This document shows positions 1 to 52,363 of a stretch of DNA of 52,363 nucleotides, in pieces. The position numbers and the translations under genes were made by a program. How positions within the stretch are numbered: position 1 is the first letter of the stretch; each line of letters opens with the position of its first letter. Source of the stretch: a virus (taxonomy: Duplodnaviria; Caudoviricetes); the IMG/VR virus record IMGVR_UViG_3300037069_001879, positions 1 through 52,363 of that record. The stretch is one strand, 5' to 3'. A model generated the notes under the pieces. It did no database searches, was not told the origin of the DNA, and was given only the letters and a program-made list of their open reading frames with translations.

Positions 1-2034
1 AAAGGCTTGAGCTGGTTTATAGCCCCCGGTGGTTGCGGTAACATTCACATTATCTATCCTGACCGAAGAAATGTTTCCCTTTTTAAATGCAAGCCCACCG
101 TTGTTTATGTAGCTTGGATTTTCGGTATAGTAATCGCAAACAAGCCATTGCTGAGACACCGTTCCCATCACATTGGATATATTTATCCTACCAAGCAGGG
201 CCGCCGTCGATAAAAGTCTAATACCGCTTTTTGTATTTTGAAAATTAATCCCATCGACAAACACATCCGTTATATTACCAACGCTTGCTCCTAAATCATA
301 GGTAGAACCGTTTAGGGGGAGATTTCCTGAGGGGTTTGTGGTCTGCCAAACATCATTGGCATCCAGCGCAATCAAATCATCCTGACTGTTGCCATAAAGG
401 TTTTTAACCACAACATTGGTCATTGGGCCGATAAAATGCACACCATCATAATCGTTTGAACCTGCCAGCGTTGCCGGTAGGTTGGTGAACCAGTTTTGAA
501 AATAGATATTGGACGAATTATTTATCATAATCGCCATTGTGCGGCTGTTCAGCGTTGTAATATCTCTCATAATAAGATTATTCACCCCGCTAAACCTGAA
601 AATCGTATTCCAACCCGTTCCTGATGTGCCGCCATCGTGGGATTGATTTGCCGTTCCGGAAACCTGTCCGTTACCGTTCCAAATGCCACCATCTATCTCT
701 ATATTACTTTCAACAACACCCGTAGACCCGGTGCTTTGATGTGTGTTCTTAATAAATGGTACGTTTGAATTGGTGCGCTGAATAAACCCACAACCCGGTA
801 AAACAACAATCTTGGTATTAGATAATACTTGTAATTGCGTGGCCGAGTAGTGTCCGTCAACATAAACAGTAATAGGCGTTGTTGAACTCGCATTATTTAA
901 TATAGCCTGCATGGATGCGGTATTATCAGTCCCGAATGTGGTCGATTCCATTGCGAGGCTGGCGTCGTCGACCAACCCCATCTTTGATGTATAAAATATC
1001 TTGGTGCTGCCTAATAATGAATTAGTGTTTATCTGCGCCTGTAGTTTGTACAAACCCATATTAACACTATCCCCCGCGAGTATAGTACTTGATGGTGCTG
1101 ATGGGTTGGCTGAAATTATCTTAGCTTGCGCCCCTATCAGCGCAGGCGTTATCGTCGCCCAGCTCCTGTTCGCGCCGTCTGTTTTCAAAAACTTGCCGCC
1201 GTTCAAATTTTGCGTAGGTAGCGAAACGCCCGAGCTGCCCACGATCTGAAAGTTAGTACCGTCGTATTGCAGTACCAGCGTTTGCCCGGCAGCTATGTCG
1301 CCTATCTCTAAATCCTGCGAGCCTGCTTTTTTTACCGCCGTGGTGCCCACACTATTAATATTCAGCGTTACCGTACCCGCAATCGTGTTGGCATTGGTAA
1401 ATGTGATATAGTAAAGTTGGTTGGTAACGTAAGATGTGATTGCCGGGGTTAAGCTGGCTAAATAAGTATTGGTGCCGGTGGTCGTTGCGGCGAGTGTCGC
1501 GATTATATCGGTCGATGCCTCCTGCCATGTCCTGTATTTTATCGTAGGATCGGCGGTAAGCAAGCCGTTAACAGCTGTCGTTTCGTGCTGCAATAAGGTA
1601 AATGTTAATGTACGGTGGGTAACGTCCTGGTTGTGGCCCAGGCTCAGGTTGTTTTGCGAGCTCGTTACGCTGGCCACATCCGACAGGTTGTTTGCCTTTT
1701 GCAGGTAACCGGGCAACACCGTTCCATACAACCGGGTGCTGTCGGCCTTTTTTGGAAGCATAACGCCGTACAGCCGTGCGCTGTCGGCTTTAAGGTTTAA
1801 CTGAGTTGTTAGTCCTGTAACGTCTGATTGCGCTATGGCGCTAAATTCAACCCTCCCGCTGCCCGCGTTCTTTGCAAAGCCCGAAACCGATTTAGTGCTA
1901 TTTTCGATTATAAAAACCGCAGCCTTTGTCCTGTTAGTAACTCTGAGCGTATCGGCGCGAAGGTAGGAGGATTGCTGAGCAAACGTACAAATACTTGCAA
2001 GTGTTATAGCGATAAGTAATAGGCTTTTTTTCAT
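1..2034 (-). CDS. Tailspike/tail fibre with pectin-lyase-fold (GH28-like) depolymerase, N-terminal part; continues through the junction into 50789..52360 (~1173 aa in total)
   Basis: Manual translation from ATG 2034 is open to the window edge: MKKSLLLIAITLASICTFAQQ..., fibre motifs LQKANNLSDVASV and PTQNLNGGKFLKTDGANRSW, beta-helix motifs GTDNTASMQAI, NDYDGVHF, SQDDLIAL, GIRLLS. In frame with ORF 50789..52324. Confidence 0.88.
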   Translation of the reverse strand, partial: MKKSLLLIAITLASICTFAQQSSYLRADTLRVTNRTKAAVFIIENSTKSVSGFAKNAGSGRVEFSAIAQSDVTGLTTQLNLKADSARLYGVMLPKKADSTRLYGTVLPGYLQKANNLSDVASVTSSQNNLSLGHNQDVTHRTLTFTLLQHETTAVNGLLTADPTIKYRTWQEASTDIIATLAATTTGTNTYLASLTPAITSYVTNQLYYITFTNANTIAGTVTLNINSVGTTAVKKAGSQDLEIGDIAAGQTLVLQYDGTNFQIVGSSGVSLPTQNLNGGKFLKTDGANRSWATITPALIGAQAKIISANPSAPSSTILAGDSVNMGLYKLQAQINTNSLLGSTKIFYTSKMGLVDDASLAMESTTFGTDNTASMQAILNNASSTTPITVYVDGHYSATQLQVLSNTKIVVLPGCGFIQRTNSNVPFIKNTHQSTGSTGVVESNIEIDGGIWNGNGQVSGTANQSHDGGTSGTGWNTIFRFSGVNNLIMRDITTLNSRTMAIMINNSSNIYFQNWFTNLPATLAGSNDYDGVHFIGPMTNVVVKNLYGNSQDDLIALDANDVWQTTNPSGNLPLNGSTYDLGASVGNITDVFVDGINFQNTKSGIRLLSTAALLGRINISNVMGTVSQQWLVCDYYTENPSYINNGGLAFKKGNISSVRIDNVNVTATTGGYKPAQAF
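3..84. repeat. 82-bp terminal overlap, copy 1 (identical to 52279..52360); circular assembly junction
   Basis: AGGCTTGAGC...TTCCCTTTTT is identical at both ends (offset 52276); the reading frame of the spanning gene is preserved across the join. Confidence 0.95.
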
Positions 2035-2046
2035 TGTATTGCTAAA

Positions 2047-3087
2047 TTATATTATTATAAATTCTGATATGTCAGATTGAGGGGACAAGGTAACAGTTAG
2101 TATGTTTCCCGAACCATCTTTTGCCACAGCGGCAGCAGGAACACCGTTTGGAACCCAAACACCGTTCGTTAAATCGGACTCCGATATTTGGATTGAGTTA
2201 CCATGTTTTGCAACATACGTAATCGTTGTTCCTGATAGGTAATCAGTCTGCCAATTTATGACTTTAACCGAACCGTCGGTAATATCTATTACTGTTTTCT
2301 GTGCCATGGCTTCTGGGCTTGAGGAGTCTACAAAAACGCTCCTGGTGTTTATAGGAAACGTATATTCTTGGTCGGTATCGTCAACGTACATATTAACCGA
2401 GCCTTTGGAATAGTCGTTTAAAGGCTCAGTCGCAATGGAATAAGCGTCTTTGGTTATGTACTTTATGCCGTCGATATATATACCGTCATGCTCATACATT
2501 TCGGACGCTGCCTCGTGTGCTGGCTCGTCAAACCAATAGCTTTCGATCTTTATAAATTTATACTTAAAATCTCGAAGGTTCCTAAGGCGCTGGTCGCTTG
2601 CGTTGCGATACTGCGTTTTTTGCAGCTCGAATTGGTAATCAATTTTTATCAAGGGTAGGCGAAATACGTTAAAGTAATCCACCAGGTTCTCGTAGTTTAT
2701 TTTATTCCTGTTGCTTGCGTTCCTGTAAAGAACAGTAGGCGCGTTGGCGTATGCAAGCGGATCGTTTTCGATCCAAATATAATTAGACCTGATCTTTTCG
2801 ACATTTGCAAGCGTGTCCCATATGACAAACTGATAATAACCATTTGGAAGCTGTGGGCAATGAAAAACAGCAAATATATTGTAGGTTATTCCTGTTACCA
2901 GGTCCTTTTGAAGTGGCCCAATGTTTGTCGCCTTGCTCGTCGCGCCCTGGTAAACATCCAACTGGAAATGATCGAAATTTGAGTCCGAAACAGGCGTATC
3001 AAAATTAATATAAAAGGCATACTGCTCAGTTGGAACATAAATAGGTCCGAATACCTTATTTGGGGTTTTGGAGTATAAATTTTCCAT
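2047..3087 (-). CDS. Putative minor tail protein
   Basis: 346-aa ORF in the tail operon between the tail-tip genes and the tailspike. Confidence 0.6.
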   Translation of the reverse strand: MENLYSKTPNKVFGPIYVPTEQYAFYINFDTPVSDSNFDHFQLDVYQGATSKATNIGPLQKDLVTGITYNIFAVFHCPQLPNGYYQFVIWDTLANVEKIRSNYIWIENDPLAYANAPTVLYRNASNRNKINYENLVDYFNVFRLPLIKIDYQFELQKTQYRNASDQRLRNLRDFKYKFIKIESYWFDEPAHEAASEMYEHDGIYIDGIKYITKDAYSIATEPLNDYSKGSVNMYVDDTDQEYTFPINTRSVFVDSSSPEAMAQKTVIDITDGSVKVINWQTDYLSGTTITYVAKHGNSIQISESDLTNGVWVPNGVPAAAVAKDGSGNILTVTLSPQSDISEFIII

Positions 3088-3872
3088 TATGGGCAGGTTG
3101 ATATGTTAATGACACGGCCCATATAGACCTGTAATAGATATGTTCCGTCTGAGTACCAGCCCGTGGCTGCTTGGGTTGTCAAACTTGTTTCATTCCATAG
3201 CAACATCCCTATACGCCAGGAGCTGTCAGCGGGCGCCACATAATAATCCGTATGGCTTGAGGAGCCGCAAGGCGCGGAGCTGTCGGTCGCGTTAAAGCTC
3301 AGCGTCCTTGTAAGGTACGTTGCGGTACTGCAATTAGTTGGATCCAACGCTTGTGGTATATAATCAGGGTCGGTATTAACGTTTGCTTTGGTTACGCCCG
3401 TTGCTGAGTTATCGTCCGTGTAATACTGCTCTAAAATGGCATATAAGCTATAACCAGTCCGGACGCCACCTGACATAACGCAAGTAGGCGTACCTTGACC
3501 TCTCCAAGCAGTCGCCCTGGCTGTTACCGTTATCCTAATGGTTGCCTCGTTTGACATATTGCCGTAAACATCTGCCCATTTATATTTAATAGTCCTAAGA
3601 CCGGAAACCGAGCCTGACGGTAAATAATATGTGAGTTTTTGAGTGGCTGGATTAAAAGTCGCAGGGCGGCTTATGTTGTCCTGAACCGTTACCAGTATGC
3701 TCGAAAGGTTTATGCCAAAGGTAGAAATGTCATTTAATAAAATGCTTATATCGACACTCGCAGCATTATTAGGCATTGAGGCAACATCGTCCACCGCGGA
3801 ATTTGAAAACACCGCAGCGTTAAAACTCCCCGTCCAGCGTAAAAAGTTATTTTTATTTAATGGATCCGGCAT
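3087..3872 (-). CDS. Putative minor tail protein (Ig-like beta-rich domains, Cys-containing C-terminus)
   Basis: S/T-rich; TIKYKWADVYGNMSNEATIRITV resembles an Ig-like (Big) repeat; tail operon position; start moved to ATG 3872. Confidence 0.55.
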   Translation of the reverse strand: MPDPLNKNNFLRWTGSFNAAVFSNSAVDDVASMPNNAASVDISILLNDISTFGINLSSILVTVQDNISRPATFNPATQKLTYYLPSGSVSGLRTIKYKWADVYGNMSNEATIRITVTARATAWRGQGTPTCVMSGGVRTGYSLYAILEQYYTDDNSATGVTKANVNTDPDYIPQALDPTNCSTATYLTRTLSFNATDSSAPCGSSSHTDYYVAPADSSWRIGMLLWNETSLTTQAATGWYSDGTYLLQVYMGRVINISTCP

Positions 3873-3887
3873 GTTCAAATATATAAA

Positions 3888-6668
3888 TTAAAATAAACCT
3901 TTTTTAGCAACCTTAAAATTACACTCCTCAATCGTTGGATTGTATTTGATCTCATAAGGATAGCCCTTCCAAAGCACACCTTTTGCATCATTGAAAACGA
4001 TATATCCACCGTCGTCGTCCGTTTGCGCTGAGAAATTTAATTTATTAATAAGGTCAATTAACTGGTCATATTTTATTGAGGCGTCAAAGTTGCACCAAAT
4101 AGGTAAATGTATGGGTGATCTTTGCCCTTGTATGAAATCGGAAACCGATATGCTGCTACCCTCGCCCACAGGCGTCGCGGGCTCAAATCTGTTGTAAGGA
4201 TCGGTTGCGCTCAACTGGCTTTGCAGCGTGTTGTTATTTTGCGCGAATGTAAGCACGATTAATGAGCTTGCAGGCTGCTTGGCTAATCCTACGCCTAAAA
4301 ACTTGCTCCAGTTGTATAATATACGCGCAGGAGTTATGCGAAGATCGTAGGCGGTTTCAGGGCTTAATACGCCTGACACGGTTGCAAACGCTTCGTTTGC
4401 CTGCGATTGTAAAACGCCGCCTACTACCTCGGTGTTTATTATAAAAATATCGTCGTCGTTGGATAGCGACTGAGAAGGGTTAAGGGCAAACTGTTCGCGG
4501 CGCTGACTTTCGAGCGCGTAACCCGAGCCTATAAAGCTTGACAATTTATTAAACGCCGCCTTAAAGGTTCTGATTGGGAAAAGATATTTATGGTAGGTAT
4601 TGTACTCGTCCAGCGTGTTGCCCAGTCCATTCGCGGTTGCAAGCGTAGGGTATTTTTCATAACCTATCTGAGCTTCGTTAAACACAAACTGTTCGGCGTG
4701 ATCTTCGGTGTAGTTGTAAACGTTATTTATTTGCGTAATCTGCCGATCTTTAAAAAAGAAATCAAGCTCCTCGATTAATAGGTATTGAACGCCGCCGCGA
4801 ACAGGGAAGCCATAACCCAGTCCAAAGATATTGCAAATGGATGTAATTGCGGCCTTAAGGCTCGTAATCGTTGGTTTAAAATTTACGTCAAAGCCTCGAA
4901 TTTGGTAACCGTTTGTTATAAACCAATCGTAACATCTGCCGCCTGGGCTCATTACCGAGCTGATTAATCCACCTGCTTGGTTTGTGGTAGCGTTTAACAG
5001 ACCAGTAATGGCATCAAAGAGCCTGTATGCCTGCGTAAAACTGTCGGGCGCTACTGTTTTACCTGTTAATGTTAACTCGCTTGTATAGTTGGTAATGAAA
5101 TAGAAATAACTGGTTCCTGGATGACCCATTGTTCCTGTTATGTCAAGGTAAAGCAGGTCGTTTACTTGTAGGTCACGGTTAATAGCAAGGTTACAGGAAA
5201 TATTCAAATTAATGTTACCCGTGCCGTCGTTACCCGTAACCTGATACGCAGGGAAGGTGGTATATTCTGTTGTGCTTAGCGCGGATGTTCCTGAGATAAC
5301 CAACGTGGCGTGTGTATAGCCATTACCCGCGCTTACTACGTTAACGCCTGTGCCTACGCCGCTGCTACCTGTGATCTGAACCGCAGCGCCCGAGCCGTCG
5401 CCCACGATCTCAGCAGTTGCAAGAACATAGCCTGCGGCCCCGCTGTTATGCGTAGTGTTTGGCTGATAAATAACGGCACCGCTTCCGTCTACAATGGTAT
5501 AGCCGCTGCCGCCGTGTGTCAGCGTAACGCCCGTAACTGTGCCGTTGGTTATTGTTGCTGTGGCGCCTGCCCCGTCCCCTGTGATCGTAACCGTTGCGTT
5601 GGTATATCCTGCGCCTGGCCCTGTGATTGTAATACCAACGATAACGCCGCCCGCTATCGCAGCCACAGCGGTCGCGCCTGCGCCATCGCCCGTAATCGTA
5701 ACGAGAGCATACGTATAACCAGCGCCGCCCGCTGTCAGGTTTGCTCCTATGATTGCGCCGCCCGAAATTGTGCTTGGAGAGAGGTTTACGGTTCCAATTA
5801 CAATGTCCTGGCGCTGGATCATAAAACGCGGAACAATGTTGAAATTACCCACGCCGCCTGAGCCTGAAACGATTTGCAATTTAAAGTTGCAAACGTAATT
5901 AAGCTGATAATTACCCGCCTCTATTGCTTTAAAAAAGAAACGCGATTGGTCGCGAGGGTCGATACCTGAAATGGCCAAAGGTAAGCTTTGCGGCTCCTGT
6001 AGCTCAGTAATAGACGGCGACGAGGTTTCAGGCTGTATGCTCATAAAACGAGCTATACGCCCACTCTCAATACTTTCAGGCGTCGTAACGTTGCAAATAA
6101 ACTGTTTTGAAATCAGCTTAGACCTGAGCTTTAATAAGTGCGAAGTGGCGGGCGCCATTGCGTATTGGTCAAGTGTTCCTGCCGCGTTAAGATTTACGGG
6201 CGTATCGAACCTTGTCCTAAAAAGATCGTTAAAGGCAAGCTTTTCGACTGAGCATTTTATAATTTGTAACTCCTGGTCGTTTTGGTAGGTATTAAGGTTC
6301 AGTATCGCGCTATATTGTATATACTCAACGCCGGCAATCGCATAGCCAAAATCCAAAGTTATTTGAAGATCGGAGCCAAATTGGTCGTAGGCGCTTTGGA
6401 TTAACGTGTACGCTTTCCAAACAGGCGTGGTGCCAGGATCCTTCGTGTCGTTTGCAAACTCTAATTGCTGCTTGTCATCCACAAAGCTTTCGTTAAAGCC
6501 AAAAAACTCCTTATCCCTCAGGTTCTGAATTACAATTTTATCCCAGGTCGCGGGCTCGTCTATGTAAAAAGGCGTACCTTTATCAGGTACAACGCCAGGA
6601 ACCGGCAAGGTGTTAGGAATCCAAAGTTTAAAAAAAGTTACGTTATCGTATAGGTTTTTATTGCTCAT
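3888..6668 (-). CDS. Tail tip/hub protein with an inserted Gly-rich repeat domain
   Basis: 926 aa, immediately downstream of the tape measure gene; internal GxGYT..VTITGDGAGATA repeats. Confidence 0.65.
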   Translation of the reverse strand: MSNKNLYDNVTFFKLWIPNTLPVPGVVPDKGTPFYIDEPATWDKIVIQNLRDKEFFGFNESFVDDKQQLEFANDTKDPGTTPVWKAYTLIQSAYDQFGSDLQITLDFGYAIAGVEYIQYSAILNLNTYQNDQELQIIKCSVEKLAFNDLFRTRFDTPVNLNAAGTLDQYAMAPATSHLLKLRSKLISKQFICNVTTPESIESGRIARFMSIQPETSSPSITELQEPQSLPLAISGIDPRDQSRFFFKAIEAGNYQLNYVCNFKLQIVSGSGGVGNFNIVPRFMIQRQDIVIGTVNLSPSTISGGAIIGANLTAGGAGYTYALVTITGDGAGATAVAAIAGGVIVGITITGPGAGYTNATVTITGDGAGATATITNGTVTGVTLTHGGSGYTIVDGSGAVIYQPNTTHNSGAAGYVLATAEIVGDGSGAAVQITGSSGVGTGVNVVSAGNGYTHATLVISGTSALSTTEYTTFPAYQVTGNDGTGNINLNISCNLAINRDLQVNDLLYLDITGTMGHPGTSYFYFITNYTSELTLTGKTVAPDSFTQAYRLFDAITGLLNATTNQAGGLISSVMSPGGRCYDWFITNGYQIRGFDVNFKPTITSLKAAITSICNIFGLGYGFPVRGGVQYLLIEELDFFFKDRQITQINNVYNYTEDHAEQFVFNEAQIGYEKYPTLATANGLGNTLDEYNTYHKYLFPIRTFKAAFNKLSSFIGSGYALESQRREQFALNPSQSLSNDDDIFIINTEVVGGVLQSQANEAFATVSGVLSPETAYDLRITPARILYNWSKFLGVGLAKQPASSLIVLTFAQNNNTLQSQLSATDPYNRFEPATPVGEGSSISVSDFIQGQRSPIHLPIWCNFDASIKYDQLIDLINKLNFSAQTDDDGGYIVFNDAKGVLWKGYPYEIKYNPTIEECNFKVAKKGLF

Positions 6669-9600
6669 TATCCTCTACCGCCTCCCTTGCGTCTTTCGGC
6701 TTGTTTCTGTATGCGGCTATTTGAGGTAACCTCAAACTCTCTCCACCCGTCGGCGTCGATAACGGTTTCCCTTACAGGGCGCTGATTTATTGCACGTGTA
6801 AACGCGCGTTCCATTTGATCTGCGGACACGCTCTTGGATAAAAGCGATTTTATAAGCTTGTCGGTCTTTTGGTGCTCGTAATTACGCACAATGTCGGTAC
6901 CTCTTATCAAGCTGTCAACAAACTGGTTGGCGTCGTTGCCTCCGTCGAATTGTTGGCGCAATATCTCAGCAGACCGATCGGCTGTGTGTACTTTTTCACC
7001 TTTTTTAAGTCGTGTAACCGTTTCTTTACCACCACCCGCTATTCGGAATTTACCTTCGTGCTCCAACAGCTCAGTACCTCTATCGTTTACAACCGCAAAC
7101 TCCTCGGGTCCACCCGTTCTACCTTTATAATATTTAGGTATCGGCTTAGCTGCGGCAACCGCAAACTCAGCAGCGCCCAAAATACCAATCGCGATTGATA
7201 GAGGAACGTTTGGTGGTAACGAAGCAAGCGCGGAAGTGATACCAATAGCTGTGTTTAATGCAATCCTAAACAGCGCGTCCAGCTTTTCTGCTTTCGCTTG
7301 TTTGGTTTTTTCTGCCGCAACTTCGTCGTTGTATTTTTTCTCAATCGCCCTTTTTGCAGCAGCGTTGCCACCAGCTATTACCAGTGAGTTATCGCGCTCA
7401 ACGCCGAGCTGGGCAATACGCTGATTTGAACCGTCGATAAAGTTTTGGGTAAACCCGTCAGCTAATCCACCTGCAAGCTCAAAGGCATCGGTTAAAGATA
7501 GTTTTTGTTTAACGGCAAAATCCTCGACGCCTTTGGATAGTGTTTTAAATATTTCTGCGTAGCCATTGCCCACGCCTTTAGCGATTGCAGGTAACGACCG
7601 ATTAAACTCCTGGAAAACTTCTTTGATGCCTTTGATACGGGCAACCTCAACCTCTTCGGCATTTTTAATCTGTTCCTCGGCGTGTTTTTTATCTAAGTCA
7701 GCCACTTGTTTAAGCAGGCGCAACTGCTCTAAGGACCCTTCTTTTGAGAGTTGCAACCTGGCATTTAACGCTACCTTGGTGGCAAAATATTCCTCGTTCT
7801 GCTGGTCAATAACGCTTTTTAGCTGCAAGTGGTTGTAGTCGTCCTTGTCAATAGTGGCGGCCTTATACTGCTCTAAAATATCCTTATTGTAAATCGCGTA
7901 TTTGGTTGCGATCTCGTCCAGGCTCTTTTCGGCATCTTCGGCGTCCTTTTTGTAATCCAGCTTAACCTGCTGAGCGTTTAGGTCTTTTGCGGCGCTGTTA
8001 ATGTCGCCCGCGTCAGGTCTGCCAGGAAGCGGCTGAAAGGTACTACCTCTCATTAAGTTTTCGTAGGCTTCTTTGGCTGCATTAAGCTTGGCAACTTCTT
8101 TCCTGTAAAGCTTAACCGTAGGATCATTCTCGCCCACCTTTTCGCCTTTCAGGAAACGATCCTGTATTTTTTTACCAAGCTTGTCAATTTCGGCCTGTAA
8201 TTCGGCAAAACCGTCTTTAGTAGATTTTACGGTTCCATGAAGCTCTTTAAGGCGTTCGCGCAAGGCAATAATTCGCTCGTTTGTCACGCTGCCTTTAACC
8301 GCGCTATCGGGTTGATCTGTGAGCTCCTTAATTCTTTTTTGGATTTCTGGTATAGACCTTAAATCGCCGTCGCCCAGCTCTTTCGTACCTGACGAGCTTG
8401 CAGGTGGTTTTACTTTAACGGCATCACGGGCGCGGACATACGCCTCGCGTATTTTATTATAGGAATATTCAAGGTCTTTGGCGTTTTTAAGCGACTTGGA
8501 TAAGTTTATAGGCCCACCGTCCTCCACGTCGCCTTTCTTAACAGCGCGGGCGTATTGGTTGTAAGAGGCAAAGGCATCGTCGGCAGCGGTCTTATATTCC
8601 TTCAATAAGGCCTTTATTTTCTCAGGATCATTGCCTACGTTTTCGGGATAACCGTTTCCTGTTAAAGGGTTTTTCTTTAATAACTCGTCGTGTTTTTTCT
8701 GAGTGGCCTGCGTGTTGTCTGATACCGAGTTAAGGCTATCAAAGTTTGAAGCGTCAAAGGAAAATATCCTTGCAAATAATTCGCTTGCCGATCTGCTGTT
8801 AAACAGCTTGTTTAAAGCGTCCACCGCATTACCTGCGCCGTCCACGATCTGCTTAAAGAAATTAGATATGGCGCCGCTGGTCGTCGCGTTTGTGAATTTC
8901 TTTAAAAAGAGATCGGTGTGGGCGCTGAGCGTGTCTTGGCTTATCGCGTTTTCGCTTAACGCCTCCGAGCCTGTTTTAAAGGACTCGGTAACCAGGTTTG
9001 TAGCCGTTACGAGCTTGCCCTGGTTCTGAGCAAGCCCAATAACCGATCTCGTTACGTCGCCTGCTTTTAAGCCCAGGTCTTTTAACCTGGTTGCCATTTC
9101 GGTAGCGGTAGCGTTGCCCGATGTTAAGCCGACAAAGAATTTCTTTAACGCAGCATCGGCGTCGGTATTGATTAGATCGGTGAAATCCTTTAAGGTTAGT
9201 TTCGCGTCGCCTAATTGTGCTATTGCAAAATATTTCTCTTTTTTACCAGCAAGCAGTAGTAGTAGTTTGTTAAACGCTGTTCCTGATTTTTCAGCCTCGA
9301 CACCTGCCTCCTGGAATGCCGAGCCATAAGCCAACACCTGTGGTAATGATAGTTTAAACACCTGAGCCACACCCGCTGTCCTTGTCGCAAAGTCCTGCAG
9401 GTTCTCACTCGTGGTAATACTGAATTTACCAAGCGTTGCAAGTGCTGAGCCTGTCTTAATGATGCCTTCTTTTACACCAAACTGGTTGCTAATACCAAAT
9501 AATGAATTTATTTTGGTTAAAGCAGTCGCGACACCTTCGGCACCACCAGCGATCTGATTTCCCAGCGCCCTGCTCACTAAGTCCAACCCTTCGGCAAAAC

Positions 9601-10591
9601 CAGCAAGGTCATCTTTACCAATTCCTCGTCGTGCGCCTATCGCCGCAATCTTAGCGAGATCGTCCAACGAGGTTGATGTTTTGATACGCTTTAAACTCTC
9701 CTCCAGTTTGTCGGTCTCCTCTGCTGTTAAAGAGGCTTTTTGACGTACAAGGGCTAAGCTTTCGCCCACCGCTTCGTTACCTTTGAAGATACTACCCAGC
9801 AAGGCAAAGCCGGCCTGTATGGATAAGTAGCCAAGCGCAAACTGTGAAAACTGATTTCCTAATCCGCTCAGCGCCGACTTATAATTACCAACGTTCCTAA
9901 AGTTTTGGTTTATGCTTGCGTCAAACTCTTTTAGGCGCGCTGTATTATTGAAAATTTGCTTTTCGAGCGCGGCGGCCTCTTTGTTGCCTTTGGCCAAACC
10001 CTCGGGCATATTTTTCAGGCTCACTATTAATCTCTTATTCTCAGCGTCAAGGGCTGCGTAAGATCCTGCGGCAGCGGTAAAAACCTGCTTCGTGCTTCGC
10101 AGGGTGTTGTTCATCGTCTTAATGTCGGAATCGATTTGCCGGGCATCTTTGGCGATCTGTTGAGCTTTTTCGTGATTAGCTGAGGTAAATGCAGCCTCAT
10201 AGGCGCGCTTTAGGTCTGCATACTGTTGGGTGAGCGACTTAACGGCATCCCTCGCAACTGCATCCGTATTTTTTGCGTCTTGCCTCGACTGTTTAAGCTT
10301 GTCCAGTTGGGACTTTAATTTATCAGCAGCCTGCAGGTTATCAAGCAACGCCTTTTGGTTTTGCTTATTGGCGACCGATAATTGTAAGGTAGATTTTAAC
10401 AACTGCTCGTTAACGCTGGTGAGTTGAATTTCCTGCTCAGTCAGCCTTTGCAGTTGCCCACCTATAACCGAATTGAAAAAATCGGTGTAGGTTTTTTTAA
10501 GCAGGTTAACACCATTTATACCCTTCTCAATAGTTGACTGGTCATTGAAATTAAAGAGATCGTTAAAATCAATAGGGTTATTACCTGCCAT
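6668..10591 (-). CDS. Tail tape measure protein
   Basis: 1307 aa, Ala/Lys-rich helical; NFRNVGNY motif, TP901-like core (EAGVEAEKSGTAFNKLL), C-terminal IPKYYKG..GGPEEFAVVNDRGTEL. Confidence 0.93.
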   Translation of the reverse strand: MAGNNPIDFNDLFNFNDQSTIEKGINGVNLLKKTYTDFFNSVIGGQLQRLTEQEIQLTSVNEQLLKSTLQLSVANKQNQKALLDNLQAADKLKSQLDKLKQSRQDAKNTDAVARDAVKSLTQQYADLKRAYEAAFTSANHEKAQQIAKDARQIDSDIKTMNNTLRSTKQVFTAAAGSYAALDAENKRLIVSLKNMPEGLAKGNKEAAALEKQIFNNTARLKEFDASINQNFRNVGNYKSALSGLGNQFSQFALGYLSIQAGFALLGSIFKGNEAVGESLALVRQKASLTAEETDKLEESLKRIKTSTSLDDLAKIAAIGARRGIGKDDLAGFAEGLDLVSRALGNQIAGGAEGVATALTKINSLFGISNQFGVKEGIIKTGSALATLGKFSITTSENLQDFATRTAGVAQVFKLSLPQVLAYGSAFQEAGVEAEKSGTAFNKLLLLLAGKKEKYFAIAQLGDAKLTLKDFTDLINTDADAALKKFFVGLTSGNATATEMATRLKDLGLKAGDVTRSVIGLAQNQGKLVTATNLVTESFKTGSEALSENAISQDTLSAHTDLFLKKFTNATTSGAISNFFKQIVDGAGNAVDALNKLFNSRSASELFARIFSFDASNFDSLNSVSDNTQATQKKHDELLKKNPLTGNGYPENVGNDPEKIKALLKEYKTAADDAFASYNQYARAVKKGDVEDGGPINLSKSLKNAKDLEYSYNKIREAYVRARDAVKVKPPASSSGTKELGDGDLRSIPEIQKRIKELTDQPDSAVKGSVTNERIIALRERLKELHGTVKSTKDGFAELQAEIDKLGKKIQDRFLKGEKVGENDPTVKLYRKEVAKLNAAKEAYENLMRGSTFQPLPGRPDAGDINSAAKDLNAQQVKLDYKKDAEDAEKSLDEIATKYAIYNKDILEQYKAATIDKDDYNHLQLKSVIDQQNEEYFATKVALNARLQLSKEGSLEQLRLLKQVADLDKKHAEEQIKNAEEVEVARIKGIKEVFQEFNRSLPAIAKGVGNGYAEIFKTLSKGVEDFAVKQKLSLTDAFELAGGLADGFTQNFIDGSNQRIAQLGVERDNSLVIAGGNAAAKRAIEKKYNDEVAAEKTKQAKAEKLDALFRIALNTAIGITSALASLPPNVPLSIAIGILGAAEFAVAAAKPIPKYYKGRTGGPEEFAVVNDRGTELLEHEGKFRIAGGGKETVTRLKKGEKVHTADRSAEILRQQFDGGNDANQFVDSLIRGTDIVRNYEHQKTDKLIKSLLSKSVSADQMERAFTRAINQRPVRETVIDADGWREFEVTSNSRIQKQAERRKGGGRG

Positions 10592-10858: not shown

Positions 10859-11461
10859 CTATTTTCCGGTAGCTTCTACCGCTAAAAATTTATTTCTGTT
10901 CGCGTGTAATCGAACATTGTAAGGCAGCTCAGCATTTTTGTCAGCCAATTCCTTATATTTTGGTCCATTGTAGTAAAAAGCAATGTTGTCATAATCGCAT
11001 TTTAAAACCGCTTCGTGTAATTTTGGTTTGGATTTTATCCATTTCAGCATACAGTCAACCTGGTTTAACTCGCTTATTTGGCAGTAATCCCAAAAGTCCT
11101 GAACGTGCTTAAAACCGATCGCATAACAGTTAAAACCCATTAGCTGCCCTATACCGATAGAAGTTGATAATTGGGCTGCTGTCTTATCCTCAATGGCTGC
11201 AATATTAAAAGCTTTCCACTCAGCGGTTTGGTTTTGTGCGCCTGTGTTCATCCAGGTAGTTTGACCCGCTGCCCAATCTTTATGCTCTTTTTTAAACCAG
11301 GTCGGTTCAAAGCGTATTATCATATGGTAAGGCGAAAGACGCGAAAAACCAATCCCTGACGTTTCGACTGAAAGGATAGATCGTATCATAGGTAAATCGT
11401 ACCCGTACTGAGATACAATGGTTTTTAATTGTTGCAATGTGAGTACTGTTTGGCTTTCCAT
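10859..11461 (-). CDS. Endolysin, N-acetylmuramidase (DUF3380-like)
   Basis: VETSG.GF, IRFEPTWF, STSIGIGQLMGFN, FYYNGPKY motifs. Confidence 0.88.
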   Translation of the reverse strand: MESQTVLTLQQLKTIVSQYGYDLPMIRSILSVETSGIGFSRLSPYHMIIRFEPTWFKKEHKDWAAGQTTWMNTGAQNQTAEWKAFNIAAIEDKTAAQLSTSIGIGQLMGFNCYAIGFKHVQDFWDYCQISELNQVDCMLKWIKSKPKLHEAVLKCDYDNIAFYYNGPKYKELADKNAELPYNVRLHANRNKFLAVEATGK

Positions 11462-25267: not shown

Positions 25268-25464
25268 TATACTGTGTAATTAATTTGCTTTTTGTCAAGG
25301 ATCCAGGTTTCGATCTCAATCCGCTGAGTATTAGGATCCCACGATCTCACGCAGGCGTCCGGTATCCAATGAATTTGTGTATTCTTTAGCTGCAAACGCC
25401 AGGCTTTGTCGCTTCGCTGTAACAGGGCTTTAATCGTAAGGTTTGCGGTTTGGTTGCTGCTCAT
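25267..25464 (-). CDS. Hypothetical small beta protein
   Basis: SDKAW...WIP...ETWI pattern common in small phage proteins; ATGA coupling. Confidence 0.6.
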   Translation of the reverse strand: MSSNQTANLTIKALLQRSDKAWRLQLKNTQIHWIPDACVRSWDPNTQRIEIETWILDKKQINYTV

Positions 25465-26129
25465 ATACCAAATTTTATTTTAACCACCTCGACAATGGTT
25501 AAGTATGCCTTAGCAAAAACATTATCGGCATGCGTTCTTATAACCTGAGCTATAAATTCCTCAAGCGTACCAAAGAAGCAACCGCAAACGACCTTTATTA
25601 ACTTGTCTTTACACTTAAAAAAGGTGGTTGATCTGTTTTCGGATCCAAAGTTTTGAAATACGCAGTAATCATTGTTGGATTTAATTTCTGCATTACCGCA
25701 AACCCATGCATTACCGCAAACCCGTGCATTACCGTAAACCTCTGCATCACCGGAAACCCATGCATTACCGTAAACCCGTGCATTACCGCAAACCTCTGCA
25801 TTACCGCAAACCCATGCATTACCGCAAACCCGTGCATTACCGTAAACCTCTGCATCACCGGAAACCCATGCATCACCGGAAACCCATGCATTACCGTAAA
25901 CCCGTGCATTACCGCAAACCTCTGCATTACCGTAAACCTCTGCATCACCGGAAACCCATGCATTACCGTAAACCCGTGCATTACCGTTCGGCGTGTTTTC
26001 CGCGTCCACCCAGCCACCTAAGTCGCCAGGGTTGGCATACTTGGTTTTTTTGGTACATTTAATTCTGAATAGCTTAATACCAAAAACGTTTACTTTGGTT
26101 TCGCTGGTTAGTTCATAATATTTTTCCAT
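25461..26129 (-). CDS. Hexapeptide-repeat (left-handed beta-helix) protein, common phage family
   Basis: KLFRI...GDLGGWV N-domain, tandem G[ND]AxVx repeats, C-terminal VVCGCFFGTLEEF. Confidence 0.85.
   Translation of the reverse strand: MEKYYELTSETKVNVFGIKLFRIKCTKKTKYANPGDLGGWVDAENTPNGNARVYGNAWVSGDAEVYGNAEVCGNARVYGNAWVSGDAWVSGDAEVYGNARVCGNAWVCGNAEVCGNARVYGNAWVSGDAEVYGNARVCGNAWVCGNAEIKSNNDYCVFQNFGSENRSTTFFKCKDKLIKVVCGCFFGTLEEFIAQVIRTHADNVFAKAYLTIVEVVKIKFGI
25689..25985. repeat. 18-bp coding tandem repeat (about 16 units)
   Basis: GCATYACCGNAAACCYNT units; explains the spurious repetitive ORFs in other frames. Confidence 0.9.
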
Positions 26130-26463: not shown

Positions 26464-26568
26464 ACAATAATAGGCACAATTATTTAATCTACCAAATTTA
26501 TTTTAAAATATTTTTTAAAATTTATTTTGTTTTTTATTTGGTGGTATGGAACCATATACCGACATTTG
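26464..26568. promoter_or_regulatory. Divergent early promoters flanking a conserved 29-bp AT box
   Basis: Leftward TTTG-20 nt-TATTATTG, rightward TTTG-20 nt-GACATTTG; box at 26492-26520. Confidence 0.65.
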
Positions 26569-27895: not shown

Positions 27896-28116
27896 AAAAG
27901 AACCAAGAAACATGGGAGATCGTTATAACCTACGCGATTATTGCCCTGATCGTTTGGGCCTGCATTAACTTTATTAACTATAAGCAGCAGCAAACTAAGC
28001 GCCTTTATAAAGCCAAACACGGTTACGAGCTAACCCGTGACAGTTTAAAGGAAATAAAAAAGCGGGACACGATTAATACCGCATCCCGCCGATATGACCT
28101 GAGGTCAATAGATTAA
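27892..28116 (+). CDS. Small single-TM protein
   Basis: IVITYAIIALIVWACINFI helix. Confidence 0.5.
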   Translation: MKKNQETWEIVITYAIIALIVWACINFINYKQQQTKRLYKAKHGYELTRDSLKEIKKRDTINTASRRYDLRSID

Positions 28117-28835
28117 ATACTCAGATGTGCCTTGGTGTTCAGGTCTGCCATTGTGTAGGGCTTAACTATGTCCACCTTACTGCCTGGCTTATGTGAGTGT
28201 ATTCCTGAGTAATACGCGAAATCGTGTTTCTTAACGCTGTCCTGGTTGGGCATTATGTATGCAGTCCATTTGTGGTTCTCATAAATGGCCTTGTAACAAA
28301 ACTCAGGGATATTGACAGGCGACACCAGTTTGGTTTTAACCTGATTAGGTTTCTTGCCTGTTGTCTTTATGTAGGTCATTTTACCAAGCGTCCCGATCAC
28401 GCCGCAAACGATATGCAGGTTACTCTTAGCAGCTTCTTTGCGACACCAGGTTTCAAGTGCAAGCCAAACAATGCGATTAAGGGAAGGGCATTGAGGAACC
28501 ATATTTGACATATACCAACATTCCTTCTCGCCCTGTGCTGAGCAGCTATTATCCTGCGCCGACATTTGGTGGCCTTGATCGTATCCGCTGCCCACATAGT
28601 AGTCCATTACGTTGGAACCAGGTATCCGAGGGTCACCGATAAAATCATTCGTGCGGGGCAGGTGTGTTAAGCAGTTGACCGATGCCGCGTTAAGGTTCCA
28701 GGACACGCTATCAGGCTCGTCTGTTGAAGGGTTCCAATGCGTGACATACAGCGTATGTTTTACCGTGATCTCTTTACCGGCCTGCATGCTGAGCGACATA
28801 AACGCCGCGATCAAAATAAGGATAATGGGTTTCAT
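28113..28835 (-). CDS. DNA/RNA non-specific endonuclease (Serratia NucA-like His-Me finger) with signal peptide
   Basis: SGYDQGHQMSA, YMSNMVPQ..LNR..W..LE..CR, IPEFCYK; N-terminal MKPIILILIAAFMSLSMQA. Confidence 0.88.
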   Translation of the reverse strand: MKPIILILIAAFMSLSMQAGKEITVKHTLYVTHWNPSTDEPDSVSWNLNAASVNCLTHLPRTNDFIGDPRIPGSNVMDYYVGSGYDQGHQMSAQDNSCSAQGEKECWYMSNMVPQCPSLNRIVWLALETWCRKEAAKSNLHIVCGVIGTLGKMTYIKTTGKKPNQVKTKLVSPVNIPEFCYKAIYENHKWTAYIMPNQDSVKKHDFAYYSGIHSHKPGSKVDIVKPYTMADLNTKAHLSI

Positions 28836-36469: not shown

Positions 36470-36946
36470 TTAAAATAATGAGGTTTGATAATGTGCAGGA
36501 TTGTTGTCAAAATCCTCCCAGTTAAATTCTTTGAGCTGTTTGAAATTGTGTATCTCGTCGCGTGTATGATGCAATACATTGGCAAGACCTTTATAATTTA
36601 CCTCACCGTGTTTTAGCATCTCCTCGAGCATTTTAGCCATTCGTAAAACGTCAACGTTGCGGGATTGGTTTTCTATCATATTAATGGTTATACTATCAGC
36701 AGCGGTAAGGTTTTCAAAAACAAAGCATATCGCGTGTGTTATGCCCAAATCTTTAAGCGCCCTTAAAATGTCATTGCCGGCAACCAAAAAATATTCATTA
36801 AGTATATACTCAACCAATATGGGTTTAAATTGTCCATAACGCTTAACAATACAGTTGGTTACATGCTGCTCGTGTTTGGTTCGCTTGCTATGTTTAATAA
36901 GGTCGGTATTATATCCCAGGTCCTCAACGGGTATTATTTTAATCAT
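36470..36946 (-). CDS. ParB/Srx N-terminal-like domain protein
   Basis: I.RYGQFKPILV...LVAGN..LRALKDLG...IEN; ATGA-coupled to dpdA. Confidence 0.7.
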   Translation of the reverse strand: MIKIIPVEDLGYNTDLIKHSKRTKHEQHVTNCIVKRYGQFKPILVEYILNEYFLVAGNDILRALKDLGITHAICFVFENLTAADSITINMIENQSRNVDVLRMAKMLEEMLKHGEVNYKGLANVLHHTRDEIHNFKQLKEFNWEDFDNNPAHYQTSLF

Positions 36947-40915: not shown

Positions 40916-40988
40916 TTTTTAAATTTTTAGCGTTTAAATTGTTGCTGTTACTTAGTGAGTGTAAATAACGGTACAATAAACCACTTAA

Positions 40989-41017
40989 CCAAATTTATTT
41001 TAAAATATTTTTTAAAA
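40989..41017. promoter_or_regulatory. Conserved 29-bp AT box overlapping the -33 element of a leftward promoter
   Basis: CCAAATTTATTTTAAAATATTTTTTAAAA is identical to 26492-26520 and 45184-45212. Confidence 0.7.
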
Positions 41018-41018
41018 T

Positions 41019-45157: not shown

Positions 45158-45212
45158 CAAAGATAGGAATAAAATGGTGTAATCCAAATTTATTTTAAAA
45201 TATTTTTTAAAA
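45158..45212 (-). promoter_or_regulatory. Consensus Bacteroidota promoter plus 29-bp AT box
   Basis: TTTG-19 nt-TATCTTTG. Confidence 0.8.
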
Positions 45213-45237
45213 AATTTTCTGGACTACACCAATTACA

Positions 45238-47874: not shown

Positions 47875-47957
47875 CAAATCTATTGGAAAAATGTTACATT
47901 CAAAATATATTTTAAAATATTTTTTATTTTTTTTTCTAAAATTTATTTTTATCTTTG
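47875..47957. promoter_or_regulatory. Divergent promoters with a variant AT box
   Basis: Leftward TTTG-18 nt-TAGATTTG; rightward -7 TATCTTTG; core ATTTTAAAATATTTTTTA. Confidence 0.65.
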
Positions 47958-50072: not shown

Positions 50073-50309
50073 TTATACCTTGTTTGTCTTGGCTGCTGAG
50101 CTAACAGCGGCCGCGCTGTTAGGGTCGTTAACGACTGTTCCGCCCGTTACATTGCTGTCTTTAGCATTGATTAAGCCTACGGCAACGGCAAGGGCTGTTA
50201 ATGCGTTGGCCACATCGTGCGTAACAACGGTAGGGAACAAAAGCGGAAGCAGTTGCAGTATAACAACCACCACGCCGCTTGCTGAGGTTTTCCAGGATTT
50301 GAAATTCAT
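50073..50309 (-). CDS. Holin-like two-TM protein
   Basis: SWKTS..G start, two hydrophobic helices, GLINAKD motif. Confidence 0.6.
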   Translation of the reverse strand: MNFKSWKTSASGVVVVILQLLPLLFPTVVTHDVANALTALAVAVGLINAKDSNVTGGTVVNDPNSAAAVSSAAKTNKV

Positions 50310-50422: not shown

Positions 50423-50782
50423 CTATTGTTTATGTATCCTGGGGTTAAAAATTGAAATTCGACTATCGAGAAACTCCATGTACGCCGCTGTTCCAGGCAG
50501 CGGTTGCAGCAACTGCAAATAGCCAGCGTTTGAAATCTCTGCCCCTTGCTTGTTGTAAAACACAACCCGGATAAAAAAACCGACTGTCGTATCCCGCTGC
50601 ATTTGGGTAATGGAGTAGGTAACCGAACGCGCGGTGTCGGTTAGCGACGTGGCCACCATCTTATCGATCACGTAAGCGCCTTTTGGCACCAGTACCGTAT
50701 CGCCCTCGTTGCTTCTGATTTTTGTTTGTGCGTTTACCCCAATAGCTGCTATCATGAGTAAAAATGTGATGATTGTTTTCAT
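50423..50782 (-). CDS. Signal-peptide protein directly downstream of the tailspike (possible spike chaperone/partner)
   Basis: MKTIITFLLMIAAIGVNA|Q. Confidence 0.65.
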   Translation of the reverse strand: MKTIITFLLMIAAIGVNAQTKIRSNEGDTVLVPKGAYVIDKMVATSLTDTARSVTYSITQMQRDTTVGFFIRVVFYNKQGAEISNAGYLQLLQPLPGTAAYMEFLDSRISIFNPRIHKQ

Positions 50783-50788
50783 AATGCT

Positions 50789-52360
50789 TTAAAATGAACC
50801 GATTACCAGCCATGCGTTTCCGCTTGCCTGAATTGTATAGCCTTTGTATTGAACGCTTACCGTTAAAGAAGCCGCACCGTCTACTGTATCAGCGCCGTTC
50901 GGAGTTATCACAACCGTATTGGCTGAACCGTCTATTTTTTTAATGATGTAGGTTTGGCCGGGAACGGTATTTGCGGCGGGTAGATTGACCGTTACAGTCC
51001 CGCTGGTGGCGTTACCCTGAATTATATAATTACTTGTTGTTGCTGTTGTGGCACCCGCGCTAAATGTATTCGAGGTTGTCTGTATGCCGGTAAAGTGTGC
51101 CGCTCCCGTGAATTGAGGGCTTGCTAAAGGGGAATAATAAGTATTCACCCATGCTGTCGTTGGTATCTGCGTAGTGTTAATGTTTGAGCCGGGTGTTGGC
51201 GCTGTTGGTGTGCCGGTTAATGCGGGGCTTGCCGATGTTGCGTAATAATTAGCCGCTATAACATTCAATTTACCGTTCGTACCGCTCGTAACTAAACTAT
51301 CTGTGCCTGCCGTACCAACGCCTTTTTGTTTGATTGTGGCAAGCCCGTTAACCTGTAATTTTGCGCCGCTGCCATTATCCGTGTTGTTATTAATTAAGAC
51401 ATTTCCCGTACTTCCCTTAATCACCATTTGGTAGGTAGAATTTGTACCGAGTGTGGAAAGATCAATATCCTGGGCCGTCCCTGTTGAGTTAGCATCGGCA
51501 ACCAGTAAAAGCCTGTTATTTCCAAGAGACGTGTATTCAGTAGAGGAGGCCAATGAGGCATTCGTAAAGTTAGATGGTAGCGAAAATATGCCGCCGATTG
51601 TAATTCCGTTGACCGTTAAATTAACGCCGGAAAATGCGTTTGTTCCCGTGTTTGTATTGGATAAGTTTATTTGAGTGTTAAAGGCATTATCGTTGTTGAT
51701 AAAGTTTTGAATGCCCGAAAAGTTCATTCCGGTTGCGAAACTGGTCAAAAGCCCATAGCCATCGTTATATGTCTTGGTAATTGATGAGCTGCCGAAAAAC
51801 GCAATCTGGGATGGCGCCGAAATGTTGTTAGGATAATAAGATGAAATAACACTTGTTGCCTTTAACTGCAATGCCCATCCTACCGAAGACAATAACCTTA
51901 TATTATTCATTAAAAGAACGGGTATAGTTGCGCCCTCGTCTACTGCTATTGCAGACGTATTTGAGGCGGTTACATTGTTTAAGCTAACGTCGTTTGTTAC
52001 CAAAGATGCCCCAAGATCAACCGGGAACATATTGACTACCGAGGTTGCTGAATCCCTCAAAATGGCGCTGTCAAAAATGTTTATATGGTTTATATTGCCG
52101 TTAAGCTGGATTATATTAAAGGCACTTGTGTTTGTGTTGGAAGTCATAGAGAAATTATGACTAATATTTAACCGGTTAATTGTCGATCCTGTATCTACCA
52201 TTAAAGACGGGTATCCGTTACCTATGGATGGCCTTTTGTAGTTCGTAATGGATATTTCATTTGCGATTGTATGAATGTAGGCTTGAGCTGGTTTATAGCC
52301 CCCGGTGGTTGCGGTAACATTCACATTATCTATCCTGACCGAAGAAATGTTTCCCTTTTT
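50789..52360 (-). CDS. Tailspike/tail fibre, C-terminal part (continuation of 1..2034)
   Basis: Asn/Ile-rich beta-helix, SPALTGTPTAPT...TTQIPTTAWV fibre motif, C-terminal TVNLPAA...YIIKKIDGSAN...DTVDG domain. Confidence 0.88.
   Translation of the reverse strand, partial: KKGNISSVRIDNVNVTATTGGYKPAQAYIHTIANEISITNYKRPSIGNGYPSLMVDTGSTINRLNISHNFSMTSNTNTSAFNIIQLNGNINHINIFDSAILRDSATSVVNMFPVDLGASLVTNDVSLNNVTASNTSAIAVDEGATIPVLLMNNIRLLSSVGWALQLKATSVISSYYPNNISAPSQIAFFGSSSITKTYNDGYGLLTSFATGMNFSGIQNFINNDNAFNTQINLSNTNTGTNAFSGVNLTVNGITIGGIFSLPSNFTNASLASSTEYTSLGNNRLLLVADANSTGTAQDIDLSTLGTNSTYQMVIKGSTGNVLINNNTDNGSGAKLQVNGLATIKQKGVGTAGTDSLVTSGTNGKLNVIAANYYATSASPALTGTPTAPTPGSNINTTQIPTTAWVNTYYSPLASPQFTGAAHFTGIQTTSNTFSAGATTATTSNYIIQGNATSGTVTVNLPAANTVPGQTYIIKKIDGSANTVVITPNGADTVDGAASLTVSVQYKGYTIQASGNAWLVIGSF
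52279..52360. repeat. 82-bp terminal overlap, copy 2
   Basis: Identical to 3..84. Confidence 0.95.
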
Positions 52361-52363
52361 CTT

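Follow-up and report, generated by a model that had tools for sequence, protein, structure and literature searches.

A candidate receptor-binding tail fibre with a Bacteroidota-type export signal and a GH28-like beta-helix in a siphovirus genome

We analysed a 52363-nucleotide (nt) stretch of DNA from a tailed virus (Duplodnaviria; Caudoviricetes; IMG/VR record IMGVR_UViG_3300037069_001879), which is referred to below, at its full length, as the window. This analysis concerns the last of the large genes in the siphovirus tail module, located at the distal end of the module. The gene encodes a protein of 1173 amino acids (aa; P0001) that combines modules typical of tail fibres with a beta-helix similar to those of glycoside hydrolase family 28 (GH28) and starts with a leader of the type that is exported by the general secretory (Sec) pathway and cleaved by signal peptidase I (SPase I) in Bacteroidota.

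A junction-spanning gene and its product

The virus record is classed as linear, with a CheckV completeness of 100. Positions 3-84 are identical to positions 52279-52360, forming an 82-nt direct repeat that corresponds to an assembly overlap, and only the outermost two to three bases of the window differ between the copies. Given the identical repeat near both ends, the record evidently represents a genome of approximately 52276 nt that is circular or has terminal redundancy and was opened within a gene. The opened gene is on the minus strand: its frame 2034..1 (678 aa, open at the 3' end) continues into 52363..50789, and the translation joined across the junction is the 1173-aa protein. This protein and a variant that is identical to it at 1172 of the 1173 positions (P0167) are encoded without interruption on 36997-nt contigs from other assemblies, which bears out the junction-spanning open reading frame (ORF) proposed in the first-pass annotation; the ORF is missing from the ORF track because the gene called in the record itself covers just a C-terminal piece of 511 aa (P0166).

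An in-frame TAA is located five codons upstream of the ATG at 2034, and the next in-frame ATG, GTG or TTG is codon 92, so that any product containing the first 91 residues evidently starts with MKKSLLLIAITLASICTFAQQ; a true start farther downstream, which had been named as a possible refutation, was not found before that codon. The ATG lies 12 nt past the stop codon of the preceding 346-aa gene. The 346-aa gene (stop codon at 2047-2049) and the fibre gene share a frame, with the TAA and four codons between them. Stop-codon read-through from the 346-aa gene was considered and rejected, given that the window contains no tRNA or suppressor and that a different genetic code is not suggested.

The N-terminus of the protein is MKKSLLLIAITLASICTFA followed by QQ, exactly the leader that had been claimed for it. 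The predicted signal peptide (residues 1-19; 1978..2034, minus strand) consists of the n-region MKK with a charge of +2, the uncharged, hydrophobic, 12-residue h-region SLLLIAITLASI and the tetrapeptide CTFA, with the SPase I cut predicted before Q20-Q21. The residues around this site, T17 at -3, A19 at -1 and Q20 at +1, form a boundary of the Bacteroidota Q-rule type, and residues 2-19 are modelled by AlphaFold as a lone helix. Glutamine at +1 is a hallmark of Bacteroidota SPase I substrates according to the available text of two publications (PMC5837995, PMC10653852). The n-region holds no Arg and no twin arginine, the signature of twin-arginine translocation (Tat) signals. Searches of Pfam and NCBIfam with the protein and its pieces detected no C-terminal domain of the type IX secretion system (T9SS; Por_Secre_tail or type B C-terminal domain), and the C-terminus adopts a fibre-tip fold rather than that of a T9SS sorting domain. 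The lipobox of signal peptidase II substrates has Gly, Ala or Ser at the position preceding the Cys; Cys16 of the leader is preceded by Ile (LASIC) and does not conform to this pattern. As read from its sequence, the N-terminus has all the classical features of a Bacteroidota Sec/SPase I leader, and Sec export followed by cleavage after Ala19 is the straightforward and highly probable reading.

Leaders were called here and below by a simple hydropathy rule applied to N-termini rather than by a trained predictor. Under this rule, about 5 further ORFs of the ~70 phage ORFs have a leader-like N-terminus, namely, those for a 119-aa protein, a 111-aa protein encoded near the junction, a 240-aa protein of the Endonuclease_NS family, a 183-aa protein when read from a Met within the ORF, and a membrane-anchored protein of 278 aa; a leader-like N-terminus is absent from all other head and tail proteins of the phage.

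The mature part of the protein (all coordinates on the minus strand) starts with an orphan region (residues 20-169; 1528..1977) that is modelled poorly, with predicted local distance difference test (pLDDT) values <50, and includes the motif LQKANNLSDV (residues 111-120; 1675-1704). Residues 1-170 have no homologue among proteins of 645-2053 aa, with P0026 alone overlapping residues 122-199. The next module, a common tail-fibre domain (residues 170-280, TGTNTY...QYDGTNFQ; 1195..1527), is the best-matching stretch in dozens of homologues, and residues 159-286 are matched by twelve viral loci; it is followed by the motif GKFLKTDG (residues 280-287). The beta-helix is split by the ends of the window, with the first part (residues 342-678; pLDDT ~90) encoded at 1..1011 and the second part (residues 678-850) at 51761..52278, positions 52279-52363 being a repeat of the window start. 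The helix is followed by a beta-rich linker of no recognised fold (residues 851-999; 51314..51760), with pLDDT <50 in both models, and by a tail-fibre repeat region (residues 1000-1078; 51077..51313) that contains SPALTGTPTAPT (residues 1028-1039) and ASPQFTG and produces multi-stretch matches among homologues in the HMMER search; PHROG 2631, 'tail fiber protein', matches residues 997-1062 (E 3.5e-7). The protein ends in a beta-sandwich fibre-tip domain (residues 1079-1173; 50792..51076; stop codon at 50789-50791) that is modelled with pLDDT of 86-95. In BFVD, the fibre-tip domain obtained 343 matches at E<=0.001, and several of the matching proteins bear the name tail fiber or minor tail protein. 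The domain can be superimposed on the C-terminal ends of numerous viral proteins with a root-mean-square deviation of 1-2 Å over ~94 columns, and it shares 44% identity with a protein whose annotation reads 'T7 tail fiber protein'. Thus, approximately 320 aa of fibre modules precede the helix and approximately 320 aa follow it, and the three tail-fibre motifs reported previously (LQKANNLSDV, GKFLKTDG and SPALTGTPTAPT) are all located in this protein.

A right-handed parallel beta-helix is confidently modelled by AlphaFold at residues 342-850. The top folds in a Foldseek comparison with the PDB are GH28 exo-polygalacturonases (2uve, E 1.3e-8; also 3jur, 5olp and 1bhe), and matches to phage tailspikes, those of HK620, CBA120 (TSP3) and phi29 (gp12), rank lower and include 6nw9, 4xot and 3gq8. 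A profile of 26 homologues also matches GH28 chains by sequence (8ikx, E 1.3e-10), with its N-x-D-G, D-D and G-x-R motifs aligned with NTDG, GDD and GVRIK of 8ikx, and D530, D552, D553 and R606 are invariant across the 26-sequence alignment. The catalytic-type motifs NDYDGVHF (433-456), SQDDLIAL (364-387) and SGIRLLS (208-228) are encoded within the first part of the helix. Of two further elements that we take to belong to the GH28 motifs, GHG and the Lys of RIK, neither is retained here. When the single protein was compared by sequence with Pfam, NCBIfam and the PDB, nothing was returned: neither piece has a Pfam match (0 families), the gathering score of PF00295 not being reached, and a precomputed PF00295 match is available for the homologue P0007. 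Because the protein, which resembles GH28 in its fold and in the N-x-D, D-D and G-x-R motifs that align, differs from it by having no Pfam match, its helix appears to be GH28-like, in agreement with the original wording, and is not named a member of GH28.

Recurrence of the leader and genomic context

An HMMER search against 1.84 billion representatives gave 14960 matches at E<=0.001, of which the best 150 were examined; these, together with 16 matches of another search, yielded a set of 104 proteins with the beta-helix, and the counts that follow refer to the matches listed. A leader was detected in 43 of the 104 proteins, and two more (P0067 and P0118) were recognised by eye behind over-extended starts. 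Leaders are present in 21 of the 50 homologues with fewer than 70 residues before the helix, in 5/22 of those with 70-150 residues, and in 17 of the 32 fibre-type proteins with at least 150 residues. A small residue followed by Q within residues 13-40 is found in 39/43 leader-bearing homologues vs 15/61 leaderless ones, and leaders head many different N-terminal modules in the family. Among distant groups of homologues, the AQ/SQ/GQ boundary aligns together with the domain behind it, whereas the h-region varies in sequence, and this combination of a variable core with a constant boundary is, on the evidence of the alignments, the behaviour of a signal peptide, unlike that of a docking peptide. 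In the leaderless homologues, the N-termini are mostly what we take to be fibre anchors of phages that infect other phyla. To the question raised in the first-pass annotation, whether homologues keep the leader, the answer is accordingly positive for these 43 proteins, one of which is encoded syntenically in a distantly related phage.

A relative of the beta-helix was found in five viral contigs (L016, L017, L018, L019 and L020). In L018, the distal tail protein is homologous to the 926-aa distal tail protein of the window (27% identity, E 2.5e-13); after it come two small genes, then the genes for a 941-aa beta-helix protein (P0006) and a 316-aa protein, both of them leader-bearing, and lysis genes. 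In L019, a leader-bearing 1164-aa beta-helix protein precedes a 501-aa protein that has a leader as well, and the genes behind these encode membrane proteins and a lysozyme. In each of the loci where the fibre has a leader, the product of the next gene has one as well: 119 aa in the window, 316 aa in L018 (11126-12076), 501 aa in L019 (12395-13900), and 207 and 593 aa in a further contig, L031 (3491-5895). These next-gene proteins show no mutual similarity by BLAST; they may serve the fibre as partners matched to its compartment or as chaperones.

Thirteen further loci (L021-L033) come from species-representative genomes, 12 of which are labelled Bacteroidota and 1 Cellvibrionaceae. Ten of these (L021, L023-L030 and L032) encode proteins of 536-750 aa in which the leader directly precedes the helix, in neighbourhoods that resemble polysaccharide-utilisation loci, with SusC/D-like and other exported-enzyme genes, and two (L022 and L031) are short phage-like contigs, L031 with leader-bearing neighbours. 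By eye, all 12 matched ORFs of L021-L032 start leader-like; in L033, the locus end cuts the match off, with no ORF listed there. Hence the catalytic module has exported host relatives, as predicted from their leaders. In the phage protein, the leader was evidently not captured together with the host-like catalytic module because ~320 residues separate the two and the leader heads fibre modules.

The late genes of the phage are encoded on the minus strand in the order terminase, portal, capsid proteins, muramidase, tape measure, 926-aa, 263-aa and 346-aa proteins, the fibre, and 119-aa and 78-aa proteins. Between the muramidase and the fibre, the tape measure (6668-10591; PHROG match), the 926-aa distal tail protein (3888-6668; phrog_15220), the 263-aa protein (3087-3878) and the 346-aa protein (2047-3087) all lack a leader. 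The earlier statement that the fibre gene ends the tail operon holds insofar as no other large gene of the module comes after it, but two small genes on the same strand follow. The 119-aa protein (50423..50782) has a Q-rule leader of its own, MKTIITFLLMIAAIGVNA followed by QTK, and is a candidate exported partner of the fibre; no family match was found in Pfam, PHROG or NCBIfam, and its Atlas scores are under the lead level. The 78-aa protein (50073..50309), with hydrophobic segments and likewise no match in Pfam, PHROG or NCBIfam, would be holin-like by its position. The muramidase (10859..11461; PF11860, E 1.8e-29; PHROG endolysin, E 1.2e-34) is leaderless. It is the sole recognisable endolysin and is encoded inside the tail module, directly upstream of the tape measure and far from the holin-like gene at 50073-50309.

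No other fibre-like gene was detected in the genome by PHROG scans of 30 ORFs and, with the fibre modules and the distal place in the tail module, this upholds the proposal that the 1173-aa protein is the receptor-binding candidate. In a complex prediction, the 346-aa protein (alignment A3) and residues 21-170 of the fibre gave a score of 0.00, which is uninformative either way. Among the portal matches, all 75 cultured-phage records are phages of Flavobacterium, Bacteroides, Parabacteroides, Croceibacter, Alistipes and Elizabethkingia, bar one unassigned gut phage, so that the host of the phage is very probably a member of Bacteroidota. As for closer phage relatives, the 346-aa protein has two homologues only, and none was found in scans of viral and metagenome contigs with its alignment A3; a contig scan with the 926-aa protein detected no relative. 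Scans for sigma-70 promoters and terminators remained at chance level, with models that are ill-suited to Bacteroidota.

Several other features of the window were recorded. The 111-aa ORF (49664-49999, plus strand) starts with the Q-rule leader MKKLLTMSCCILIAVCSFA followed by QG, runs towards the end of the late operon from the opposite strand, and is without a family match in Pfam or PHROG. The 240-aa DNA/RNA non-specific endonuclease (PF01223, E 5.5e-28; 28113-28835, minus strand) has the leader-like N-terminus MKPIILILIAAFMSLSMQA and is an exported nuclease candidate. Four minus-strand genes at 36943-37821, 41019-41564, 41766-42524 and 43385-43810 encode a tRNA-guanine-transglycosylase-like protein (phrog_887), GTP cyclohydrolase I (PF01227), a protein with a weak radical-SAM match and a PTPS/QueD-like protein (PF01242), a set that presumably resembles the 7-deazaguanine DNA-modification clusters of phages. 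An 18-nt unit is repeated 15 times in tandem at 25635-26030 within a 222-aa ORF (25461-26129), resulting in a hexapeptide-repeat protein that matches PHROGs without assigned function (phrog_7964, E 1.2e-89). Finally, an AT-rich element of ~56 nt with the core AAATTTATTTTAAAATATTTTTTAAAA is present in four copies (26473-26528, 40970-41025, 45165-45220 and 47882-47937), all in inter-ORF gaps of the ORF map; these could be phage promoters or regulatory sites.

Fate of the predicted exported fibre

We interpret the 1173-aa protein as the receptor-binding tailspike fibre of the phage, with an embedded GH28-like glycanase, made as a Sec/SPase I precursor, and for this entire chain, including late joining to virions, we estimate a probability of about 0.45. 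The precursor would be exported by Sec and cut after A19, and the new N-terminal Gln would be cyclised as in host proteins. The mature chain would fold in the periplasm, probably as a trimer and possibly together with the leader-bearing 119-aa product. The step that follows is the most speculative: particles assembled in the cytoplasm without fibres might come together with the periplasmic fibres only upon opening of the inner membrane by the holin and release of the leaderless muramidase; given that the muramidase has no leader, lysis should be holin-gated. The fibres might then dock, so that the virion could use the beta-helix to bind and cut the surface polysaccharide of the next host. Tailspikes and fibres can join particles in vitro and, therefore, late joining is physically possible. 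Virion presence, export and cleavage of the protein are all predictions made from sequence.

A role in the virion is favoured because the protein is fibre-like at both ends, is encoded by the sole such gene, which is apparently co-transcribed with tail genes, and has a proteomic precedent in Cellulophaga phage phi18:3 (NC_021794.1). Three proteins of this phage, gp085, gp086 and gp087, have leaders of the form MK...SQ, ...AQ and ...AQ, and are annotated in the record as virion structural, structural and tail proteins, respectively, 'based on experimental MS/MS proteomics analysis' (MS/MS, tandem mass spectrometry). By analogy, phi18:3 may be taken as a precedent for leader-bearing proteins in particles.

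Several observations weigh against this interpretation. We know of no described precedent for the joining of fibres to tails only at lysis, and the orphan residues 20-169 that follow the leader, which are poorly modelled, contain no recognisable virion-attachment domain. The relative of the fibre has no leader in 3 of the 5 viral loci (L016, L017 and L020), of which L016 and L017 are near-identical, and in these three the next gene product is leaderless as well. In all five cultured phages checked, the proteins in the fibre position are leaderless: gp60 of Parabacteroides phage PDS1, gp18 of Croceibacter phage P2559Y, gp39 of Elizabethkingia phage TCUEAP2, the protein of Leeuwenhoekiella phage Arctus_1, and gp22-26 of crAss001; the distal tail proteins of PDS1, P2559Y and TCUEAP2 have no similarity to the window. 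In the accessible text on crAss001, residues 1-26 of the fibre gp22 are placed in a docking hub (PMC10172136). The detection of the phi18:3 proteins by mass spectrometry could reflect co-purifying material. The O-glycosylation sequon of the host, D[ST][AILVMT], is not significantly enriched in the protein (8 vs 4.85 expected, p 0.10), and across the family the observed-to-expected ratio is 1.08 for leader-bearing proteins vs 0.90 for the others (Mann-Whitney p 0.75). Within the phage, the five other leader- or anchor-bearing proteins have 11 sequons vs 2.4 expected, the 119-aa protein 3 vs 0.4 and 18 leaderless proteins 10 vs 24.8, with p ~0.001 in a post-hoc Poisson comparison with the leaderless rate; as the enrichment fails across the family, it was rejected as support for export and is not used here.

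The first-pass annotation had left two fates for the exported spike, late joining to tails and release as a free depolymerase. The ORF, the anatomy of the leader, the lack of a rescuing start, the leader in many homologues and the fibre/GH28-like type have all stood, but these two fates are not separated. As a free enzyme, the protein would not be part of the virion, and would cut the capsule, exopolysaccharide (EPS) or O-antigen of the host from the periplasm during infection and act as a soluble depolymerase after lysis, in phage release, in the stripping of receptors from debris or infected cells, or in the opening of biofilms, with adsorption mediated by the leaderless distal tail proteins. 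This possibility gains from the 31-36% identity of the catalytic module to the leader-bearing Bacteroidota enzymes of ~540-750 aa that are encoded near polysaccharide-utilisation-like loci, from the missing virion-attachment domain, and from the existence of an exported bacterial glycanase of the tailspike type, WceF (see below); plaque halos attest to free depolymerase activity of phages, as mentioned in the available part of a published account (PMC6116005). We regard it as the main alternative but nevertheless as less probable than a role in the virion, given that the ~320 aa of fibre modules on each side of the helix would be needless for an enzyme alone, that the phage would be left without a recognisable receptor-binding fibre, that the gene lies 12 nt behind tail genes, and that neither a T9SS C-terminal domain nor another outer-membrane route was detected with Pfam or NCBIfam.

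Alternatively, the hydrophobic N-terminus could remain uncleaved, either anchoring fibres or tail tips at the inner membrane while virions assemble or lying buried in the baseplate as a docking helix. The retention of the first 26 residues of crAss001 gp22 in its docking hub is compatible with such a role, but the N-terminus of gp22 is not hydrophobic, and for that reason an uncleaved docking helix of this kind was rejected as the principal explanation. Moreover, an h-region of 12 residues is short for a membrane anchor, its sequence is not conserved among the homologues as that of a docking peptide would be, and the -3/-1/+1 residues follow the host cleavage pattern that 39 of the 43 leader-bearing homologues keep; retention of the leader is accordingly improbable. 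An artefact of annotation or assembly (a misplaced start, a chimeric junction, or an unused leader inherited with a captured host gene), to which the differing outermost bases of the repeat copies and the fragmentary gene call of the record might point, is hardly credible given the intact ORF on other contigs, the stop codon upstream and the lack of another start before codon 92, the distance of the leader from the host-like catalytic module, and the variety of N-terminal modules that leaders head.

Tailed-phage particles are taken to assemble wholly in the cytoplasm, and a receptor-binding fibre with the export signal of the host phylum, kept across many unrelated fibre architectures, does not fit this picture. 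We tentatively suggest, with less confidence than for the phage itself, that a subset of Bacteroidota tailed phages might build receptor-binding fibres outside the cytoplasm, with the fibre and the next small protein exported by Sec, processed as envelope proteins of the host are, folded in the periplasm and joined to finished fibreless particles after the holin opens the membrane. The present analysis contributes a siphovirus case with a GH28-like module and a second case that is syntenic with it, a connection to host enzymes that are predicted to be exported, counts among 104 homologues and a negative sequon result. If the exported fibre does end up on virions, this would be a new assembly step, a two-compartment route that has not been described for any tailed phage; fibres could then gain modifications of the envelope type (pyroglutamate, disulfides and glycans), recombinant expression of such depolymerases would call for removal of the leader or a periplasmic route, and the Q-rule leader could be used as a phylum marker in host prediction from tail genes. 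If, instead, the protein is a free exported depolymerase, phages of a phylum that is abundant in gut and soil would remodel the envelope glycans of their hosts from within.

Comparison with known phage and bacterial systems

We found no publication describing a tailed-phage fibre or tailspike with a Sec leader in a search that left most subscription journals and supplements outside its reach, and none commenting on the leaders of phi18:3 gp085-087. In the accessible text of one study, the targets of phage diversity-generating retroelements are stated to lack signal peptides (PMC6199706), and the available part of another reports one or two signal peptides in genomes of rumen Bacteroides phages, with the location not stated there (PMC5723332). 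The phi18:3 proteins resemble the case described here in that Q-rule leaders head proteins annotated in the record as structural or tail proteins and in that their genes directly precede lysis genes. They differ in that gp085-087 are not similar to the 1173-aa protein (best BLASTP E 0.45) and in that phi18:3 belongs to the family Pachyviridae.

The use of host Sec by phages is itself established in other roles. Five genes of unassigned function in Porphyromonas gingivalis prophages obey the Q-rule according to the accessible portion of the report (PMC10367356), and Sec-exported endolysins are known, for example, Lys44 of phage fOg44, from the available text of another publication (PMC6116005). 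Both cases involve host Sec, as here, but none of these proteins is described as a tail fibre in those texts. Outside phages, the available text on WceF of Pantoea stewartii portrays an exported, tailspike-like trimeric beta-helix protein that cuts the cell's own exopolysaccharide (PMC7949094). WceF differs from the phage protein in being encoded by a bacterial gene in an EPS cluster, in using a leader of the Tat and not of the Sec type, and in the lack of fibre modules. The leader-bearing beta-helix glycosidases of Bacteroidota (L021, L023-L030 and L032) have a homologous catalytic module, with the above identity extending over ~400 residues, but contain no fibre modules, have the leader abutting the helix, and are encoded outside phage tail modules.

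The classical tailspikes and appendages, those of HK620, CBA120 and phi29 (gp12), likewise place a beta-helix enzyme in a virion appendage whose gene ends the tail module, and residues 368-677 of the protein analysed here are 29% identical to the phi29-type appendage of Bacillus phage MG-B1. To our knowledge, these tailspikes and appendages are made without a signal peptide, and their folding takes place in the cytoplasm. The 1173-aa protein, in contrast, is headed by a Sec leader, and the N-terminal region of its mature form is an orphan.

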